Of a stretch of 25,991 nt of DNA, positions 1,641 to 10,788 are shown one piece after another. The translations under genes were made by a program, and so were the position numbers. Positions within the stretch are counted from its first letter, which is position 1. Each line of letters begins with the position of its first letter. The notes beneath the pieces were generated by a model that did not search any database, was not told the DNA's origin, and saw only the letters and a program-made list of their open reading frames with translations. Source of the DNA: a virus (lineage: Duplodnaviria; Heunggongvirae; Uroviricota; Caudoviricetes); the IMG/VR virus record IMGVR_UViG_2913137851_000001; one strand, 5' to 3'.

Positions 1641-4112
1641 TTAAGAATCAGCCTGACTCGGGATCAGTTTTTGCCAGATAACTGAAACGTATTTTGCCTG
1701 GTAACGGGCGTCATCAAGTGCATTATGGCGCTCACCTTCGAATGGAATAGCCGTTCTGGCATCGAAGTCTATGGCTTTCCCCAGCTCAACGATTGTGCGT
1801 ACATCGCGATCGTTGTAGTAACGCCACGGGCAGGGGATCCCCTGCCGTTCGTATGAACGGCGCAAAATCGTGTTGTCGAAGTTGGCTCCATTTCCCCAAA
1901 CCTGAACAAAAAATTCACCGGAGTTTTCGTCGATAAATTCTCGCAATTGTAACAGTGCATCATCTAACGGGATTTCATCGGTCATAATGGCAGATTGCGC
2001 TTCGCGTGATTGCTTAAGCCACCATTTAATGGTGTCCCGATCAATGACTCCGCCAGCAGTTTCCAGATCGATAGTCTTACTAAATTCCGGTCCCATATCT
2101 CCGGTTTGCGGATCGAAAAATATTGCACCTATTGAGATGATCGGGGCATCAGGATTTTTTCCCATGGTTTCAAGGTCGATCATTAGATGGTCACACGTCC
2201 TGCTGGTGGATGTGATTTCGTGATGACTGTTCACCTTAATTGGGTGATCTGCCGTCTCGCCAGTTTCATTATCGCTATTGTGATGCTGATTGCCGCCAGT
2301 GTTCTCCTTGTGTGGATGTTCAGCGCCTTCCATTTCCTCCGGATCATCTTCCTGAACTTCAACCTGATACTCTTCATCGAATGTTTCTTGGTATGTTGCG
2401 TCGCCCATCACCGCGCCACAATCAGGGCAGTTGCCGCCGCCGGTCTGACCGCAGGCGGTGCAGACTTTTTCCACTTCCTGTTGCGCTACTGGTTCAGGCT
2501 GTTTCGTTTCTGGCTCGTTTTGTAACGCATTTGGACTGTTTTGTTCCGCTTTTTGGTAGTTCCGTTCCGATTCATGCTGGTTCTGGTTCACAGAATCGCG
2601 GGTCTGGAGCCCCTTAACCCATTTCGGATCATTCGGGTCACTAATCCCTTCAACAAATTCACCACGTGATGCAGCAAGCAACTTATCGGCGTCAGGCTGG
2701 CTGATATTGGCTGCCTGCATAATTTTGTTTACTTCGTCAGCGGTAACTTTTATCGGCTCTGGTTGTTCTGAATCTTCAGCGGTATCTACATTTTGCGGTA
2801 AGCCCGTGTATGTGCCATTTTTTCGGGCAAAATATTCTTCTTTTGTGATTTCAGTGGCGCCAGCAGCCAGTGCCTTATCCAGACCAGAGAGTTTGTTTGC
2901 GCGACCGTATTTTTCTCCGTCCTTATCTGCGAAGAGGAAATAGAACGGCCCCTCACGCTCTACAGATGGTTCAGCTTCCGGCGCGGTTTCATTTTTTGGG
3001 ATATCAGATACCTCAGTTTCCACTGCATCAGTTTGTGTTTCTGATGACTGGAGAACATCAACAGTGCCCAGGTCTGTTTCTTCATTCTCAAACACGCCCT
3101 TTGTCGTCAGGTATTCGCAGATATATTTGTTCAGTGCTACGGGATCTTTGTGAATGTCGATCGGACGCTCACGGACAAGGCCAAAAATAGTTTGGCGGTC
3201 GTAGCGAAGGGCATCAGGCTGTTTGCGCATTGATGCCGAGATACGCTTCCAGTCTTCGCGGTCGTTGTCGATAACTTCTTTTTTTGCCCAGCGATGGATG
3301 CTGCCGTCAATGTTTCCGGCATCCACATCACTAGGCCAGAGAGCGTAGGCCAGTTCGTCATCCAGTGTTTTCCATGTCTGCTTGTATTCGCGATGAATGG
3401 CAGCAATGACCGGGCTGATTTTTCCTGTTGAATTTTCAGTGTACTGTTGATTGGCTCTGGCGCGGGCGAGATCAACAACAGACGTGTATTTTCCGGTTTC
3501 CTTGCGTTCACCTTCGCGACGTTTTTTCCAGATGCGCATCTCTGCCTGAATTTCGGGCCATTTAGCACCAGGAATACATTTATGCTTAACCCACCCAATG
3601 GCGTGCAACTTAAGCTCCGGATACATGGCGTTAACTTCTGGCATTTTCATCAACGCTTCAACGATATGTCCGTCGAATGTTGCCATGTCTTCCTGCAACA
3701 ATTCCTGTGCGCTAATAACCATATCAACGGTGATGTTTTCACATGTGTCGAACTTAACCATGACAGCGTTCTGTACTTCAGGGGCCAGCTTGTCAAAAGT
3801 GACGTTCATCGGATCGGATTCAGTCTCAACCGGGACAAAAGAAGCAGACTCCTCATCCCAGCGGTTTTCCTGCATATATTCAGCATCCCATGAATCGAGG
3901 GCAGGGCGGGGTATGCCAGGTTTATCCTCGCAGACAATAAATTTATAAGCGCAGTCCTGAGCAGCCGGATAATGTTCCAGGAATTGCCAGTGAAATTTTG
4001 CTCGAGCACGGCGTTCGTCGCCAGCTTCAATGGCTGTGGCTACAGCCACAGCGCCTTCTTCCCTTGTTGCCAGTTCGTCAGGAATAGCGGCGCAAATAAA
4101 GACTTTACTCAT
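1641..4112 (-). CDS. RecE-like prophage exonuclease with C-terminal DnaQ-like (DEDDh) 3'-5' exonuclease domain
   Basis: Long ORF; the preferred start is the ATG at 4112 (MSKVF...), preceded by GAGG, rather than the TTG at 4148 used in the ORF track. Middle region contains DKLLAASRGEFVEGISDPNDPKWVKGLQTRD, which I recall as a conserved block in Rac RecE. C-terminal ~190 aa show the DEDDh pattern (MIDLETMG ... H ... ALDDA). A Cys4 cluster (CTACGQTGGGNCPDCG) lies between them. Confidence 0.75.
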   Translation of the reverse strand: MSKVFICAAIPDELATREEGAVAVATAIEAGDERRARAKFHWQFLEHYPAAQDCAYKFIVCEDKPGIPRPALDSWDAEYMQENRWDEESASFVPVETESDPMNVTFDKLAPEVQNAVMVKFDTCENITVDMVISAQELLQEDMATFDGHIVEALMKMPEVNAMYPELKLHAIGWVKHKCIPGAKWPEIQAEMRIWKKRREGERKETGKYTSVVDLARARANQQYTENSTGKISPVIAAIHREYKQTWKTLDDELAYALWPSDVDAGNIDGSIHRWAKKEVIDNDREDWKRISASMRKQPDALRYDRQTIFGLVRERPIDIHKDPVALNKYICEYLTTKGVFENEETDLGTVDVLQSSETQTDAVETEVSDIPKNETAPEAEPSVEREGPFYFLFADKDGEKYGRANKLSGLDKALAAGATEITKEEYFARKNGTYTGLPQNVDTAEDSEQPEPIKVTADEVNKIMQAANISQPDADKLLAASRGEFVEGISDPNDPKWVKGLQTRDSVNQNQHESERNYQKAEQNSPNALQNEPETKQPEPVAQQEVEKVCTACGQTGGGNCPDCGAVMGDATYQETFDEEYQVEVQEDDPEEMEGAEHPHKENTGGNQHHNSDNETGETADHPIKVNSHHEITSTSRTCDHLMIDLETMGKNPDAPIISIGAIFFDPQTGDMGPEFSKTIDLETAGGVIDRDTIKWWLKQSREAQSAIMTDEIPLDDALLQLREFIDENSGEFFVQVWGNGANFDNTILRRSYERQGIPCPWRYYNDRDVRTIVELGKAIDFDARTAIPFEGERHNALDDARYQAKYVSVIWQKLIPSQADS

Positions 4113-4204
4113 TTGTTTTAACCTCATGACAGATTTAAGGATGAACAAATCCCTGCCATTGCTGGCATATAAGAATGAAACCGGATATTTATTACGGAAC
4201 TGTT

Positions 4205-4396
4205 TTAAAGACCTGCCGGGATTTCGATATTATCCTGGTGAATAACTTTATCGACCGGGTAACAGTTACCGGGAATTTTCTGTTCGGTTGCTGCAGTCAT
4301 ACACTCCTGCATTGTCCTGTGAACACTGACTGCAATATCAACTGGCTCTCCGGAAACAAGAAAAACTGTCAGAACAAGCACAAATGCTGAATTCAT
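4205..4396 (-). CDS. ydfD: YdfD, small membrane lysis protein
   Basis: 63 aa from the internal ATG (MNSAFVLVLTVFLVSGEPVD...), matching recalled YdfD. N-terminal hydrophobic helix. Its ATG overlaps the dicB stop (ATGA). Confidence 0.75.
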   Translation of the reverse strand: MNSAFVLVLTVFLVSGEPVDIAVSVHRTMQECMTAATEQKIPGNCYPVDKVIHQDNIEIPAGL

Positions 4397-4581
4397 TGTG
4401 CACATCCTTTTGGCATCAGACGTAAACGAGCCAGCATTGAAACAATGCATATTTTATTTAATAGCTCCCGTTCTTGTTTTCTCTTGTTAATGGCATCTTC
4501 AGTAAATACTGGGTTACTGATAGTGACACCAATTTCAAAACAACCTTCAGACGTATTAACGTTTGGTAATAACGTTTTCAT
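4393..4581 (-). CDS. dicB: DicB cell-division inhibitor
   Basis: 62 aa (MKTLLPNVNTSEGCFEIGVTISNPVFTEDAINKRKQERELLNKICIVSMLARLRLMPKGCAQ), matching recalled DicB. Lies downstream of DicF on the same strand. Confidence 0.88.
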   Translation of the reverse strand: MKTLLPNVNTSEGCFEIGVTISNPVFTEDAINKRKQERELLNKICIVSMLARLRLMPKGCAQ

Positions 4582-4755
4582 TATCGCGTCCTCAACAATG
4601 AATTTTGTGATGCAGTGCCTGGTGCCTCCAGGTGACGTTAACCAGTTAACAATTAACGCCGGATACAGAGAATCCACCCATAACACTGTTTTTGGTTTTA
4701 ACTGTTCCGCGTGCGCTCAGCCGCATTCACCACATCACAAAATTCACTTTAAAAA

Positions 4756-4808
4756 GGGCGGCAGAGCAGTCACGGAGTAAAACTGATACCGCCAAACGTC
4801 ACCAGAAA
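4756..4808 (-). ncRNA. dicF: DicF small regulatory RNA
   Basis: Reverse complement of 4756-4808 reads TTTCTGGTGACGTTTGGCGGTATCAGTTTTACTCCGTGACTGCTCTGCCGCCC, matching recalled 53-nt DicF. It ends in a GC-rich stem followed by TTTTT (the + strand AAAAA at 4751-4755). Sits between ydfC and dicB as in K-12. Confidence 0.85.
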
Positions 4809-5148
4809 ATTGATAACAGAGGGCGTTGCAGCGGGGTTGTCACTTAAGCGTATGGTCAACCTGACAACCCGGTGTCCTCAACGGGGAAGGAATAACCCCG
4901 CCATACTTACCGCCGCGCCATTTCGCGGGTTGCCACAACCGGAAGCGCACGGTCGACGAAAATTTAACGACAGGCTATCTATGAACCAGCTACCTCGCCG
5001 TGCGCTTTCGCGTTATGGTCTGACTTTTCAGGGAAATATCCTTTCAGTAAACTGTCAGTTCCGGATGCGCACCCGTGTCCGGCGCACGCACTCCACCTCA
5101 CCCGTGGAGAACTCCTTAATTACTAACCTTAGCTTTGTTGATTAGCTA

Positions 5149-5367
5149 CTAACGCGGGTATGTAATCATTCTGGCAATGCTTAATGCCGCTGCTTTTTCC
5201 AGATTGGTGATATCCTGCTCCAGAGCGGACAGATTTTCAGCCTGCTTAGCCCTGGCTTCATTAGCCCATTTCAGATCCTGCGCTGCATTAATTTTCTGGC
5301 GCATCCACTCATAAAGTTCATCATCGGTATAGTCTGGCGCGATGATGACGGGTTCTCGTTTCTGCAT
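5149..5367 (-). CDS. ydfC: YdfC, dicB-operon protein
   Basis: 72-aa ORF (MQKREPVIIAPDYTDDELYEWMRQKINAAQDLKWANEAR...), consistent with recalled YdfC and with operon position. Confidence 0.75.
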   Translation of the reverse strand: MQKREPVIIAPDYTDDELYEWMRQKINAAQDLKWANEARAKQAENLSALEQDITNLEKAAALSIARMITYPR

Positions 5368-5396
5368 ACTGATTCCTCGCGGTGCTGTTTCGCTTA

Positions 5397-5525
5397 TCAG
5401 CCGTTAGATTTTGCCGAACTGGAAAGCGCCTGTTTAAACTCACTGAAGCTGAGAGCTTCTTCGCCTTCGGCAAGGCCTTCGAAGTATTCTTCGTAAGCCT
5501 TTTCCATGATTGTGTCGAAATCCAT
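5397..5525 (-). CDS. ydfB: YdfB, small dicB-operon protein
   Basis: 42-aa ORF below the ORF-track size cut-off, translated by hand as MDFDTIMEKAYEEYFEGLAEGEEALSFSEFKQALSSSAKSNG. AGGTGAG SD upstream. Start is 1 nt beyond the ydfA stop. Confidence 0.7.
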   Translation of the reverse strand: MDFDTIMEKAYEEYFEGLAEGEEALSFSEFKQALSSSAKSNG

Positions 5526-5526
5526 A

Positions 5527-5682
5527 TCACTCACCTGAGTTTCTTTCCAGCCAGCGACGGGCACCATTTTCGGTTTTAAACGTTTTGCTTTTGGTATACG
5601 TCATTGCGGTGAACGTGCCGTCCTGGTTTGGAAACACGCCGTACACCAGAGATTCGTTGTTGCCAAGATCGATAGTATCCAT
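5527..5682 (-). CDS. ydfA: YdfA, first gene of the dicB operon
   Basis: 51 aa from the internal ATG (MDTIDLGNNESLVYGVFPNQDGTFTAMTYTKSKTFKTENGARRWLERNSGE). TGAGGT SD upstream. Confidence 0.7.
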   Translation of the reverse strand: MDTIDLGNNESLVYGVFPNQDGTFTAMTYTKSKTFKTENGARRWLERNSGE

Positions 5683-5848
5683 GCTGACCTCATTTCCCCT
5701 TAACGCTGGGGTAGCGGAACTGTTTGCTGAGAACACCGTGCGGTGTGTTGATGCAAACAAGATTAGCCATGACTAACATATCGGTCAAGTGATTTTGTAT
5801 GCTATAGCTAACATAATTGATGTGGTAAAAGATAACTCATTGATGATG

Positions 5849-6256
5849 TTATCTTTTATTTGTCCGCTGACGGGCTTTTAGTAATTCTTCAAAGAGTTTA
5901 TTGAAGTTTTTTACTCGAGCTCGCATTTCGGCGAGCTGGGTATCCTGTTCTGATTCTGGCAGTGCATTAAACAGCTCAAGGAGCTCTAGTTCTTTGGGGG
6001 ATAAGGCAACTGGCTTCTCAACAGGTGGTGTTGGTTGCTTGTCTTCATCGCCAAATAGAATCCATGTTGGTGAGCATTGCAATACTTTGCTGAGGGCAAA
6101 AAGGTTCTTCCCTGTAGGTTCACTATCACCCCGTTCCCATTGTGATACAGACACATGGGAGATTTTCAGGGCTTTAGCAAGAGACCTTTGGGTGTGTTTG
6201 AGGTTTTTCCGACGATACCTGATGCGTTCGCCGATAGTTAAATTTTTTGTTTCCAT
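5849..6256 (-). CDS. dicA: DicA, HTH (Xre/c2-like) repressor
   Basis: 135 aa (METKNLTIGERIRYRRKNLKHTQRSLAKALKISHVSVSQWERG...) with an HTH motif; matches recalled DicA. Divergent from dicC. Confidence 0.88.
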   Translation of the reverse strand: METKNLTIGERIRYRRKNLKHTQRSLAKALKISHVSVSQWERGDSEPTGKNLFALSKVLQCSPTWILFGDEDKQPTPPVEKPVALSPKELELLELFNALPESEQDTQLAEMRARVKNFNKLFEELLKARQRTNKR

Positions 6257-6307
6257 AGTTAGCTAATGCTAAATCGTATTGACTATGTTTTTGTTAACAT
6301 CTATCTT

Positions 6308-6323
6308 GTTAGTTATGACTAAC
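6308..6323. promoter_or_regulatory. Palindromic operator-like site in the dicA-dicC intergenic region
   Basis: GTTAGT-TATG-ACTAAC inverted repeat between the divergent dicA and dicC starts. A related site TTAGCCATGACTAA occurs at 5763-5776 upstream of ydfA. Confidence 0.5.
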
Positions 6324-6339
6324 AATAAAGGTGTTTTAA

Positions 6340-6570
6340 ATGCTTAAAACTGACGCTCTTTTGTATTTCGGTTCAAAAACAAAACTTGCACAAGCAGCAG
6401 GTATTCGTTTGGCTTCGCTTTATAGCTGGAAAGGGGATTTAGTTCCCGAAGGTCGCGCGATGCGTCTACAGGAGGCATCTGGCGGGGAGCTTCAGTATGA
6501 TCCCAAAGTTTATGATGAATATCGTAAGACGAAGCGGGCGGGGCGGTTGAACAATGAAAATCACTCCTGA
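6340..6570 (+). CDS. dicC: DicC, Cro-like regulator
   Basis: 76-aa ORF divergent from dicA (MLKTDALLYFGSKTKLAQAAGIRLASLYSWKGD...), consistent with recalled DicC. Confidence 0.8.
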   Translation: MLKTDALLYFGSKTKLAQAAGIRLASLYSWKGDLVPEGRAMRLQEASGGELQYDPKVYDEYRKTKRAGRLNNENHS

Positions 6571-7009
6571 ACAGGCTCGTGAGGCTCTGGATGCCTGGAT
6601 ATGTCGACCAGGAATGACACAGGAGCAGGCGACGATATTAATCACTGAAGCATTCTGGGCTTTGAAAGAGCGCCCGAACATCGATGTTCAGCGTGTCACA
6701 TATGAAGGTGGCGCGATTGATCAGCGAGCGCTTGGCGTTAATCGAGTGAAGATATTTGAACGCTGGAAGGCTATCGACACCAGGGATAAGCGTGAAAAGT
6801 TCACGGCGCTAGTGCCTGCAATTATGGAGGCTATCCGGATTAATGATTTCAGGTTGTATCGTGAAATTACTGACGGAAAAAGCATCACGTGCATGATCGC
6901 CGGGTTAAACAAAGAATATGGCGATGTGGTGGAGTCCGGACTGCTTTTTGCTGATCCTGCCGTAGTGGATCGTGAAACATTACTCATACCACGAAATAAA
7001 AGACGATGA
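6554..7009 (+). CDS. YdaT/YdfX-like (CII-like domain) protein
   Basis: 151-aa ORF overlapping the dicC 3' end by 17 nt. Occupies the position taken by ydaT after the cro-like gene in Rac-type immunity regions. Family assignment rests on weak recalled similarity. Confidence 0.5.
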   Translation: MKITPEQAREALDAWICRPGMTQEQATILITEAFWALKERPNIDVQRVTYEGGAIDQRALGVNRVKIFERWKAIDTRDKREKFTALVPAIMEAIRINDFRLYREITDGKSITCMIAGLNKEYGDVVESGLLFADPAVVDRETLLIPRNKRR

Positions 7010-7020
7010 GGAAGAACAAA

Positions 7021-7480
7021 GTGGCTGATTTTTGTTCAGCTAAATATAACATCAGTTTTGAAGAGCGGGATGAACTATTAATGGACTATGGTGAGTTACG
7101 CGGTGGAAGTGCTGCTGATGTCGAATCCTAGCGTGATGACTATGAAGCGGGAAAAACTCCGGTCGAAGCATATTGTGATGAGTGGGGCGATGAATGAGCG
7201 AGATTAATTATCAGGAAGGGCATGAAACGGCGGGGCAAGCAAAACCAGTGGCATGGCGATATCGCTACGTGAAAAAAGGCGTTACGGACTTTCAGGGGAA
7301 GTAGTGGTCTGGTGACTGGAAATATGTACCGAAAAAAGAGGATTGTAACGACAGGCCGAACTATCAAATTCAGGCCTTATTCACTGCCTCACCAGTCCCA
7401 GTTACATCAGAAGAACTGGTTAAAGCTGTGCACTTTTATGAACAACTAAAACGCGAAAATCCACCAACATCCGGCAACTA
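7021..7480 (+). pseudogene. Decayed early-region ORFs (in-frame amber stop and frameshift)
   Basis: Hand translation: GTG 7021 ... in-frame TAG at 7129-7131 ... TGA at 7195-7197 overlapping ATG 7194 (ATGA). A 36-codon ORF runs 7194-7304 (MSEINYQEGHETAGQAKPVAWRYRYVKKGVTDFQGK). Coding-like sequence continues in another frame to about 7480. Confidence 0.4.
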
Positions 7481-7735
7481 GATTAATGGATTAACTATGT
7501 CGGTTAAACGACCAGCCAACTGAAAAAGCGGAAACCTGATTACAGGTTGCCAGATAAGGCAATGAGCTACCTGGCGCGGAACGGACTGATAAGTATGGGG
7601 AATGTTTTACGATGAACCTTTAGACTAAAGAGTTTGTAACGCTATGTAAGTGATTTTTTCTGGTTTAGATATTTATATGTCCGGCCAAATTGAGGTGTGT
7701 TTAAATGTAATTGCACATTGATTGTAGGAGGAATA

Positions 7736-7915
7736 ATGAAAAACGCATTGCAGTTTTTGTTTGTTGCGTTCTGGTTGTTCGCATCATGTATGCCCATCAT
7801 CTTCACAGCAAGGTATATGGAAAAAGTTGATGTTTTGATATTAATATTTGGATATATAAATGCCCTTTTTTTAGGGGTGTTCATGGCGGTCATGTGCATT
7901 GAATACTGGCGGTAA
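7736..7915 (+). CDS. Small (59-aa) predicted two-helix membrane protein
   Basis: AGGAGG at 7726-7731 precedes ATG 7736. Product MKNALQFLFVAFWLFASCMPIIFTARYMEKVDVLILIFGYINALFLGVFMAVMCIEYWR has two hydrophobic stretches. Sits in an AT-rich island (about 7600-7920). Confidence 0.4.
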   Translation: MKNALQFLFVAFWLFASCMPIIFTARYMEKVDVLILIFGYINALFLGVFMAVMCIEYWR

Positions 7916-8042
7916 ATACAGCGAACTCCATTGGTTTAGTTGGATATTTACTGTGCTGGACAAAAACGGTTTGCGGGGAAATCTTAGTTAAGTAGAATGA
8001 CTGCGGGTGCTTGAGGCTATCTGCCTCGGGCATGGACACCAA

Positions 8043-8046
8043 CGGC
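8043..8046. repeat. Target-site duplication (CGGC), left copy
   Basis: CGGC immediately flanks the IS terminus TGACCTGCC at 8047 and is repeated at 9268-9271. Confidence 0.7.
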
Positions 8047-8075
8047 TGACCTGCCCCCACGATTAGATACAACAC

Positions 8076-8909
8076 TCAGTTAGTAACGTCGGAATCTTCA
8101 TTCTCAGAATGACCCTTTCTCCAGCCCGCTGCAAATTCAGACGGTGTCTGATAATTCAGCGTGGAGTGCGGGCGGCATTCGTTATAATCCTGCCGCCAGT
8201 CATTAATAATTTTCCTGGCATGAACGATATCGCTGAACCAGTGCTCATTCAAACATTCATCGCGAAATCGTCCGTTAAAGCTCTCAATAAATCCGTTCTG
8301 CGTTGGCTTGCCCGGCTGGATTAAGCGCAACTCAACACCATGCTCAAAGGCCCATTGATCCAGTGCACGGCAAGTGAACTCCGGCCCCTGGTCAGTTCTT
8401 ATCGTCGCCGGATAGCCTCGAAACAGTGCAATGCTGTCCAGAATACGCGTGACCTGAACGCCTGAAATCCCAAAGGCAACAGTGACCGTCAGGCATTCCT
8501 TTGTGAAATCATCGACGCAGGTAAGACACTTGATCCTGCGACCGGTGGAAAGTGCGTCCATGACGAAATCCATCGACCAGGTCAGATTGGGCGCCGCCGG
8601 ACGGAGCAGCGGCAGACGTTCTGTTGCCAGCCCTTTACGACGTCTTCTGCGTTTTACGCCCAGGCCACTGAGGTGATAAAGCCGGTACACGCGCTTATGA
8701 TTAACATGAAGCCCTTCACGGCGCAGCAACTGCCAAATACGACGGTAGCCAAAACGCCTGCGCTCCAGTGCCAGCTCAGTGATGCGCCCTGATAAATGCG
8801 CATCAGCAGCCGGACGGTGAGCCTCATAGCGGCAGGTCGACAGGGATAAACCTGTAAGCCTGCAGGCACGACGTTGCGACAGACCGGTCGCATCACACAT
8901 CAACATCAC
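8076..8909 (-). CDS. IS3-family transposase OrfB (DDE integrase core)
   Basis: 277-aa ORF with a DDE/rve-like region (D ... D ... E with K/R, e.g. [19 protein letters not shown]). In the -1 frame relative to orfA. Confidence 0.8.
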
Positions 8910-8932
8910 GGCTTCCCGCTTCTGGTCTGTCG

Positions 8933-9196
8933 TCAGTACTTTCGCCCAAGAGCCACCTGAAGCGCCTCTTTATCCAGCATGGCTTCGGCAAGCAGCTTCT
9001 TGAGTCTGGTGTTCTCTTCCTCAAGCGACTTCAGGCGCTTAACTTCAGGCACCTCCATACCGCCATACTTCTTACGCCAGGTGTAAAACGTGGCATCGGA
9101 AATGGCATGCTTGCGGCAGAGTTCACGGGCGGGTACCCCAGCTTCGGCTTCGCGGAGAATACTGATGATCTGTTCGTCGGAAAAACGCTTCTTCAT
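8933..9196 (-). CDS. IS3-family transposase OrfA (HTH)
   Basis: 87 aa, [46 protein letters not shown]..., the typical IS3/IS407-type OrfA with HTH and leucine zipper. Confidence 0.8.
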
Positions 9197-9267
9197 GGGG
9201 ATGTCCTCATGTGGCTTATGAAGACATTACTAACATCGGGGTGTACTAATCAACGGGGAGCAGGTCA

Positions 9268-9271
9268 CGGC
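9268..9271. repeat. Target-site duplication (CGGC), right copy
   Basis: CGGC immediately after the IS terminus ...CAGGTCA at 9261-9267. Confidence 0.7.
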
Positions 9272-9474: not shown

Positions 9475-10788
9475 ATGATCAAAGAGACTGTTACGATGAG
9501 TCATAAGGAACTCCACCGACTTCAGATTATTCAGGAACAAGCTGCGGCACGCATTGGCATTTCTATTCGGCAGGTTAAACGTCTGGTGCAACGGTATAGA
9601 AATGAAGGGCCTTCTGGTCTGGTTTCCCACCGACGTGGAAAGCGTCCTAATAATTCCTTTTCTACTGAATTCAGAGCAACAGTAATTTCACTCCTCAAAG
9701 GCCGTTACGCTGATTTTGGACCTACGTTTGCGTGCGAAAAATTGCGCGAGATACACGGTTTATCTTTATCCGTTGAAACTCTCAGAAAGTGGATGATAGA
9801 AGAGGGGTTATGGCGTGAACGCCGTCGTAAAATTGCCCGTATATATCAACGCCGCATGCGACGACCATCTTACGGTGAACTGATCCAGATTGATGGCTCA
9901 CCTCATGACTGGTTTGAAAATCGAGGCCCCAGATGTACACTGATCGTTTTCATTGATGATGCCACCAGTGCGTTGATGGCGTTGCGTTTTGTGCCTGCTG
10001 AAACAACCCGGGCTTACATGGAAACCCTCCGGGGTTACCTTAATGATCATGGCGTACCGCTCGCTCTCTACTCTGATAGACACAGTATATTCAGGGTAAA
10101 TAACCCAGAGCGGGAAGGTGAGCTGACCCAGTTCACTCGTGCGATAAAGACACTGGGCATCGAGCCAATCCATGCCAACAGCCCGCAGGCAAAAGGGCGG
10201 GTAGAGCGCGCCAATCAGACACTACAGGACAGGCTGGTCAAAGAAATGCGGCTTCAGAATATCAGTGATATTGAAACAGCAAATGCATGGTTGCCGACCT
10301 TTATTGAAGCCTATAACAACCGGTTCGCTACGTCGCCTCGTACTACTGATAATGCTCATCTTGATGTGCACCATTCTGAAGAGGAACTGGGTTATATCTT
10401 CAGCCTACAGGCGAAGCGCGTTCTGTCTAAAAATCTCACTTTCCAGTACAAAAGCAGTGCGTTTCAGGTACGCAGTGAGGGCCGGGGATATCGACTTAGG
10501 CATTCGGTTGTTACTGTATGCGAGAACTTTGACGGTGAAATTAACGTTCTGTATGACGGGAAAGCGCTGGGCTGGGAAAAGTATGTTGATGGCCCGGAGC
10601 CTATACCACTGGATGATGAAAAGAGTGTCCATGAACGAGTGGATAATGCCCGTATTGATTTACGCTCAAAATACTATGTTAAACCTAAAGCTGACCATCC
10701 CTGGCTTACGCGCCGAACGCAAAGTCATCAGCAAGTTAAGCCCCCGAAGTTACCTAAAAAGAAGCCTGATCCCGATAAAAAAGATTGA
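9475..10788 (+). CDS. DDE transposase (IS481/ISNCY-like; N-terminal HTH plus integrase-core domain)
   Basis: 437-aa ORF with N-terminal HTH (ISIRQVKRLVQRY) and a central rve-like DDE region (IQIDGS...D, FIDDATS, SDRHSIF, KGRVERANQTL). Ends of the element were not identifiable by eye. Confidence 0.75.
   Translation: MIKETVTMSHKELHRLQIIQEQAAARIGISIRQVKRLVQRYRNEGPSGLVSHRRGKRPNNSFSTEFRATVISLLKGRYADFGPTFACEKLREIHGLSLSVETLRKWMIEEGLWRERRRKIARIYQRRMRRPSYGELIQIDGSPHDWFENRGPRCTLIVFIDDATSALMALRFVPAETTRAYMETLRGYLNDHGVPLALYSDRHSIFRVNNPEREGELTQFTRAIKTLGIEPIHANSPQAKGRVERANQTLQDRLVKEMRLQNISDIETANAWLPTFIEAYNNRFATSPRTTDNAHLDVHHSEEELGYIFSLQAKRVLSKNLTFQYKSSAFQVRSEGRGYRLRHSVVTVCENFDGEINVLYDGKALGWEKYVDGPEPIPLDDEKSVHERVDNARIDLRSKYYVKPKADHPWLTRRTQSHQQVKPPKLPKKKPDPDKKD

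Follow-up and report, generated by a model that had tools for sequence, protein, structure and literature searches.

The early region of the phage record IMGVR_UViG_2913137851_000001 raises the question of whether the 151-codon open reading frame (ORF) behind dicC is an intact gene for a YdaT-like toxin, and whether the short ORFs that follow it have lost their functions only recently. The window, by which we mean the whole stretch of 25,991 nucleotides that was analysed, corresponds over its full length to the complete Qin cryptic prophage in the RefSeq annotation of E. coli WG5. In this annotation, the integrase gene is followed by ydfD-dicB-dicF-ydfABC-dicA, dicC and the genes next to it, relBE, hokD, the late genes, pinQ and ydfJ. 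A megablast search of the complete E. coli genomes with positions 6300-7700 gave full-length matches of 100% identity only in the E. coli C lineage, namely in WG5 and its lysogens, PA11, C122 and NCTC122. An assembly artefact was rejected because the same sequence is present in many independent complete genomes: the junction described below is identical in 8 of them and the amber allele in 495.

The coordinates of the main features are listed in Table 1. A scan for promoters and terminators returned a single promoter-like site, at 6279-6307, in front of dicC, and a repeat search of 6200-7700 identified the dicA-dicC operator palindrome at 6296-6335 and otherwise chance pairs. No RNA family was found by Rfam within 6300-8000, and no NCBIfam family was matched by any ORF of the region. 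Two minus-strand ORFs, at 6721-6987 and 7140-7367, lacked homology evidence and were set aside.

Table 1. Features of the Qin early region, with positions in the window, strand and the evidence for each.
Feature	Position	Strand	Evidence
dicA	5849-6256	-	WG5 RefSeq annotation
dicC, cro-like first gene of the rightward early operon	6340-6570	+	PGAP on identical WG5; Pfam P22_Cro, E 1.7e-11
YdaT/CII-like truncated pseudogene, 5' 142 of 173 codons	6554-6979	+	Identical to ATCC 8739 L004 4814-5238
Deletion junction, 2,254 bp	6978/6979	.	blastn vs ATCC 8739; L004 5239-7492 absent
Foreign 9-codon tail LLIPRNKRR and stop of the 151-aa ORF	6980-7009	+	DUF7167 3' sequence, out of frame
DUF7167 remnant, last 15 codons (YSYHEIKDDEEEQSG) and stop, no start	6981-7028	+	Aligned to ATCC 8739 L004 7360-7542
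58-codon phage gene, PHROG 519, TGG to TAG at codon 37 (7129-7131)	7021-7197	+	Intact 58-aa homologues
Pseudogene of a 171-aa phage protein, PHROG 660, original stop TGA 7613-7615	7194-7615	+	DNA alignment with ECA64 L012 3716-4231 and pPE4 gp20

The initial annotation had described the 151-codon ORF (6554-7009) as an intact gene that overlaps the end of dicC. The overlap is there, at 17 nt, but the ORF is not intact: only codons 1-142 are YdaT-like, the last 31 of 173 codons are gone and a foreign tail of 9 codons follows. The full-length gene, as found in ATCC 8739 and in the ECOR13 phage record PhiR42_1, is 522 bp in size and encodes 173 amino acids. The protein in the window is the same as that of ATCC 8739 up to residue 142 (...VVDRET), from where it continues into the tail, so that its C-terminal end reads ...DRETLLIPRNKRR. 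Among the database relatives, none extends over more than 94% of the 151 residues, and in an alignment with the PHROG 163 profile, residues 1-142 match positions 10-139 of 168, with the match ending at residue 142. Likewise, PGAP labels 6554-6979 as an incomplete pseudogene for a "toxin YdaT family protein", "missing C-terminus". The 151-codon ORF is a deletion stump and not an intact toxin gene.

To the base, the breakpoint could be mapped by comparison with ATCC 8739, PhiR42_1 and K_EC180. In blastn alignments, positions 4001-6978 of the window correspond to 2261-5238 of the ATCC 8739 segment L004 and positions 6979-8046 to 7493-8560, at 99.97-100% identity, and there is no microhomology at the junction 6978|6979. 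The missing segment contains the last 31 codons of the ydaT-like gene, the gene for an O-like replication initiator, a DUF977 gene, a SAM-methyltransferase gene and the first 133 nt of the DUF7167 gene. In ATCC 8739 and PhiR42_1, the ydaT-like gene is followed by a gene for a 321-aa protein, DUF977/LygF, the SAM-methyltransferase, a DUF7167 pseudogene and a further pseudogene. The 321-aa protein of ATCC 8739 was identified as an O-like replication initiator by its match to PHROG 391 (E 1e-91). Both early regions are 99.9-100% identical to the window on either side of the junction and share with it the amber codon in the 58-codon gene and all lesions in the third gene, but differ in that they keep the 2,254 bp, carry the 5' end of the DUF7167 gene with a TAA codon, and lack the ISSen4 element at 8047-9266. 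The replication module of the E. coli C Qin was lost with the 2,254-bp deletion.

To examine the distribution of the junction, we searched 5,426 complete E. coli genomes with a 120-nt probe spanning 6978|6979. The probe matched over its full length in only 8 of them, seven from the E. coli C lineage plus strain A27, and in all other genomes the match to the probe breaks exactly at the junction. This distribution indicates that the 2,254-bp deletion is a recent, lineage-specific event.

The decay of the operon began before this deletion, since the methyltransferase ORF of ATCC 8739 is already short (L004 6741-7097, 118 aa) and its DUF7167 gene (L004 7360-7542) has an internal TAA. An independent deletion in the same operon was observed in E. 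coli K_EC180 and about 18 pig ETEC genomes (L002 4441|4442). [quoted passage not shown]

Further to the right, an IS3-family element has been inserted at 8047-9266 (ISSen4 according to PGAP; Rfam places an IS1222 frameshift element at 8849-8966), with ACGGC on both sides, at 8042-8046 and 9267-9271. Since ATCC 8739, K_EC180 and PhiR42_1 lack the element, it represents another lineage-specific change. Downstream of it, positions 9475-10788 form a single continuous ORF of 437 codons with HTH domains and an rve_3 domain, which PGAP divides into an "ISNCY transposase, missing C-terminus" at 9496-10518 and a 49-aa "ydfW" at 10639-10788; this makes ydfW the end of that one frame. Upstream of the insertion, an unannotated hydrophobic ORF of 59 codons (MKNALQFLFVAFW...) is located at 7737-7915 behind a strong AGGAGG Shine-Dalgarno sequence. 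It had matches in near-identical relatives only, where either the opposite strand or "hornerin" is annotated, and no match in PHROG or Pfam.

The assignment of the stump to the YdaT/CII-like family, which the initial annotation had proposed from the position of the ORF, was supported by both profile libraries. The match to PF06254 (YdaT_toxin) was weak but above threshold (24.5 bits versus a cut-off of 21), and the match to PHROG 163, "CII-like transcriptional activator", had an E-value of 6.1e-36. A subfamily profile was needed for the comparison with known structures because a single-sequence phmmer search against PDB was only borderline (E 0.06-0.08). An exhaustive HMMER search delineated a small subfamily, the most distant members of which have about 30% identity, and ten clean members were taken from it for the profile A2. 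When searched against PDB, this profile matched YdaT of CP-933P (8bt1) with an E-value of 1.2e-17 and 3c4r with an E-value of 1.8e-16. The fold agrees with that of the family, in which a POU-like HTH domain at the N-terminus precedes a long helix at the C-terminus. The location directly downstream of the cro-like dicC is also that of the family, and in ATCC 8739 the next gene is the O-like initiator that has been deleted from the window. YdaT has been characterized as a tetrameric functional analogue of CII (PMC9986795), and YdfX of Qin has been described as a homologue of the Rac YdaT (PMC11879457). Binding of the tetramer to inverted-repeat operators and toxicity upon ectopic expression are known for YdaT of CP-933P and Rac (PMC9986795, PMC11879457). 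A scan of the window for TTGATTN6AATCAA, which is the operator motif of the CP-933P YdaT in a family whose specificities differ, gave 3 matches at 2 mismatches versus 3.3 expected, none of them near the ydaT-like gene.

Taken as it stands, the ORF is open, its overlap with dicC resembles that of ydaS and ydaT, and it matches Pfam YdaT_toxin, all of which would fit an intact and potentially toxic gene in front of an ORF chain that has decayed only recently. We consider this reading very improbable, since the full-length relatives are 173 aa long and no relative spans more than 94% of the ORF, since the tail is out-of-frame DUF7167 DNA joined by a mapped deletion, and since the downstream lesions are common to about 500 genomes and to a prophage with another immunity region.

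YdaT of CP-933P consists of a POU-like HTH domain and a tetramer-forming helix, alpha6, and a construct of residues 1-96, without alpha6, is a monomer that fails to bind DNA (PMC9986795). In the Rac YdaT, helix-breaking mutations in alpha6 abolish oligomerisation (PMC11879457). In a profile alignment, the hinge and alpha6 of 8bt1 fall on residues of about 107-131 of the Qin-type protein, upstream of the breakpoint. Consistently, a helix at residues 111-130, the alpha6 equivalent, lies intact before the breakpoint in a structure model, which is that of P0003, a full-length relative with 94% identity, and not of the product of the window itself. The model contains an additional helix at residues 135-164, for which the equivalent sequence begins at position 6956 of the window and is mostly deleted. 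The start of this helix (R140, E141, E144) is nearly invariant in the subfamily, and only residues 135-142 of it are retained in the window. The corresponding tail of the CP-933P YdaT is disordered.

If made upon derepression of the dicC promoter, the stump protein would keep its DNA-binding domain of the POU-like type as well as the helix aligned to alpha6. With this helix in place, it could still oligomerise and bind DNA, but its activity is probably reduced or altered because most of the conserved helix 135-164 is missing. It is possible, if rather unlikely, that the truncated protein of 142 residues and a basic 9-aa tail remains active as a regulator that binds DNA, or that it has a toxic effect once the dicC promoter fires. 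In favour of such a role, both the POU-like domain and the helix equivalent to alpha6 precede the breakpoint, and the translational coupling to dicC has been kept; against it speak the loss of most of helix 135-164 with its nearly invariant start and the treatment of the gene as a pseudogene by PGAP. The CP-933P YdaT cannot tetramerise or bind DNA when deprived of its C-terminal helix (PMC9986795), so C-terminal integrity matters in the family.

The sequence on the other side of the junction starts with the remnant of the DUF7167 gene (PF23768), of which 15 codons and the stop remain from a protein of about 60 aa. Upon repair, the ATCC 8739 version of this protein matches PF23768 with an E-value of 8e-14. 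The next frame opens with GTG at 7021, contains an in-frame TAG at 7129-7131 and closes at TGA 7195-7197, where an ATGA overlap (7194-7197) couples it to a 36-codon ORF at 7194-7304, all as noticed initially. A tblastn search with the conceptual product of the 58 codons matched 166 phage records. The intact gene is exactly 177 bp in the phages Rac MN652886, ArgO145, 813R8 and pPE4 and in E. coli ECA64; its ATG overlaps the stop of the DUF7167 gene and its end overlaps the next gene by ATGA. All five intact homologues have TGG (Trp37) at the position of the amber codon. In comparison to these, the window copy has a GTG start instead of ATG and Arg in place of Trp16; the boundaries and the coupling are conserved, but the PHROG 519 frame is interrupted at codon 37. 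In one of these phages, pPE4 (PP818812, "Actinobacillus phage vB_Apl-pPE4"), E. coli lambdoid genes are present with about 84-90% identity in amino acids, namely the 58-aa gene, a PHROG 660 gene and hok, which is unexpected for a phage assigned to Actinobacillus pleuropneumoniae.

A 65-nt probe around the amber codon detected the Qin allele in 505 genomes, of which 495 were identical to the window including the TAG, and the same probe with TGG restored had a perfect match in no genome. The amber codon is therefore fixed in this allele and old. The dN/dS ratios between the window allele of the 58-codon gene and intact alleles were 0.22-0.38, which overlaps the range among the intact alleles and on its own does not demonstrate relaxed constraint; the Qin copy is no more than a divergent allele with an acquired stop.

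The 36-codon ORF proved to be the start of a gene for a 171-aa protein, which is intact in ECA64 (PHROG 660, E 6.5e-72) and encodes 119 aa in pPE4. A codon-level alignment to the ECA64 gene identified four lesions: a TAG at 7302-7304 in place of CCG (Pro37 of the homologues), an in-frame loss of 90 bp between direct repeats AATCC(G/A)CCAG, within 7456-7466, a TAG at 7479-7481 where ECA64 has CAG, and a 4-bp deletion at 7512/7513. In agreement with the alignment, PGAP marks 7194-7615 as a pseudogene, "frameshifted; internal stop". Contrary to the suggestion of coding-like sequence in a shifted frame after 7304, homology persists in the same frame beyond the first TAG and up to the second, and the frame changes only at the 4-bp deletion. 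The shifted frame was probably the frame-1 ORF at 7312-7449, which is not ancestral and is read in 813R8 and L011, relatives with an extra AA in an A-run. The 85-aa "hypothetical protein" of phage vB_EcoS-813R8 (L006 2674-2931) represents this frameshifted reading of PHROG 660, with two extra A, and its product, like that of L011, ends in the frame of the window ORF. Pfam matched neither the ORF fragments nor the repaired products of 58 and 95 aa.

Intact homologues of 58 and 171 aa could thus be found and aligned codon by codon, by which the mutations were pinpointed; the short ORFs are not full length as they stand, and the suspicion that they are broken versions of real phage genes was borne out. 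We infer that no functional protein is made from anything downstream of position 6979.

The initial annotation had also remarked that the amber codon might be suppressed in hosts of the supE type. All three nonsense codons within 7021-7615 are TAG and align to sense codons of the homologues, which would agree with functional small genes whose amber codons are decoded, either with the help of a suppressor from host or phage or through programmed recoding. However, supE would put Gln at a conserved Trp, a tRNA scan of the window found no tRNA gene, and suppression cannot repair the third gene because of the frameshift and the 90-bp deletion. Furthermore, the lesion in the neighbouring DUF7167 gene of ATCC 8739 is TAA, and in other lambdoid phages the intact homologues rely on ordinary sense codons. 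Strain C122, whose sequence in this region matches the window at 100%, is Su- and serves as a non-permissive host with which amber mutants of phages are selected against (PMC7354561). Read-through of otherwise intact genes is thus extremely improbable, and we treat the 58-codon and 171-codon genes as pseudogenes.

How recent the pseudogenisation is has two answers. Positions 6979-7640 are at least 99% identical in 519 records, and the point lesions are present in about 500 diverse E. coli genomes, which does not fit a recent origin; the 2,254-bp deletion alone is lineage-specific, with its 8 occurrences. The same set of lesions in the third gene was identified in a prophage of E. coli 23CRST022 (L010 3716-4137), which has a different repressor, cro and ydaT and in which the DUF7167 and 58-aa genes are intact. 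The third pseudogene is therefore either older than the prophage lineages or has been transferred between them, and a pseudogene module is shared by more than one lineage of lambdoid prophages.

Taken together, the region is very probably the rightward early operon of Qin as it decays in the E. coli C lineage, with the cro-like dicC followed by the gene for a CII analogue of the YdaT family. The lambdoid accessory genes for the 58-aa and 171-aa proteins were dead, through nonsense mutations, an in-frame deletion and a frameshift, before the lineage-specific deletion occurred, and their lesions are fixed in roughly 500 sequenced E. coli genomes. The deletion of 2,254 bp then cut the CII-analogue gene after codon 142 of 173, took the replication initiator and three more genes, and created the 151-codon ORF by fusing the stump to out-of-frame DUF7167 sequence. 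Decay in two layers is very probably the correct description, the older layer being point and indel lesions in accessory genes that occur in about 9% of the complete E. coli genomes, and the younger a 2.25-kb deletion specific to the E. coli C lineage.

Truncated or fused versions of the ydaT-like gene are numerous, with more than 40 in the protein database and breakpoints anywhere between residues 33 and 161. After residue 93, where ydfX of K-12 breaks off, at least six different tails were observed, and DUF968, RelB, IstB, DUF977 and holin-like sequences are among the fusion partners, although some entries may be assembly chimeras. Among these versions are ydfX of K-12 and the types of K_EC180 and E. 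coli C. That the gene has been a repeated target of inactivating deletions is an idea we regard as quite unlikely; if such events were commoner here than in neighbouring genes, it could point to recurrent selection against a toxic CII analogue or the adjacent replication module during prophage domestication, and what remains of the gene in E. coli C would be a survivor with partial activity.

For the most part, what we describe is the ordinary and expected decay of a cryptic prophage, largely annotated already: two of the three lesioned genes are marked as pseudogenes in RefSeq, and the literature equates the Qin YdfX with YdaT. The contribution is a corrected reading of Qin in E. coli C, with a ydaT stump, a replication module that is gone and small ORFs that are old pseudogenes. 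This should be useful to those who grow phages on E. coli C (C122, WG5) or study switches of the DicA/DicC/YdaT type, and otherwise matters little.

Compared to known systems, the order of the DUF7167, 58-aa and 171-aa genes in the window is the same as in E. coli ECA64 and in ArgO145, Rac MN652886 and pPE4. The overlapping start and stop codons (ATGA coupling) are also alike, as are the lengths of the genes where intact, whereas all three genes are broken in the window, the first being a remnant, the second having an amber codon and the third multiple lesions. The Qin-type YdaT-like protein is longer than YdaT of CP-933P (8bt1) and Rac, 173 versus about 140 aa, and differs from these by the extra conserved C-terminal helix at residues 135-164; the window copy differs further in being cut at residue 142 and having a foreign tail of 9 aa. 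YdfX in the Qin prophage of K-12 is the product of the same gene at the same place after dicC and is likewise truncated, but by a different deletion: its homology ends at codon 93 (position 6833 of the window), whereas E. coli C retains 142 codons.
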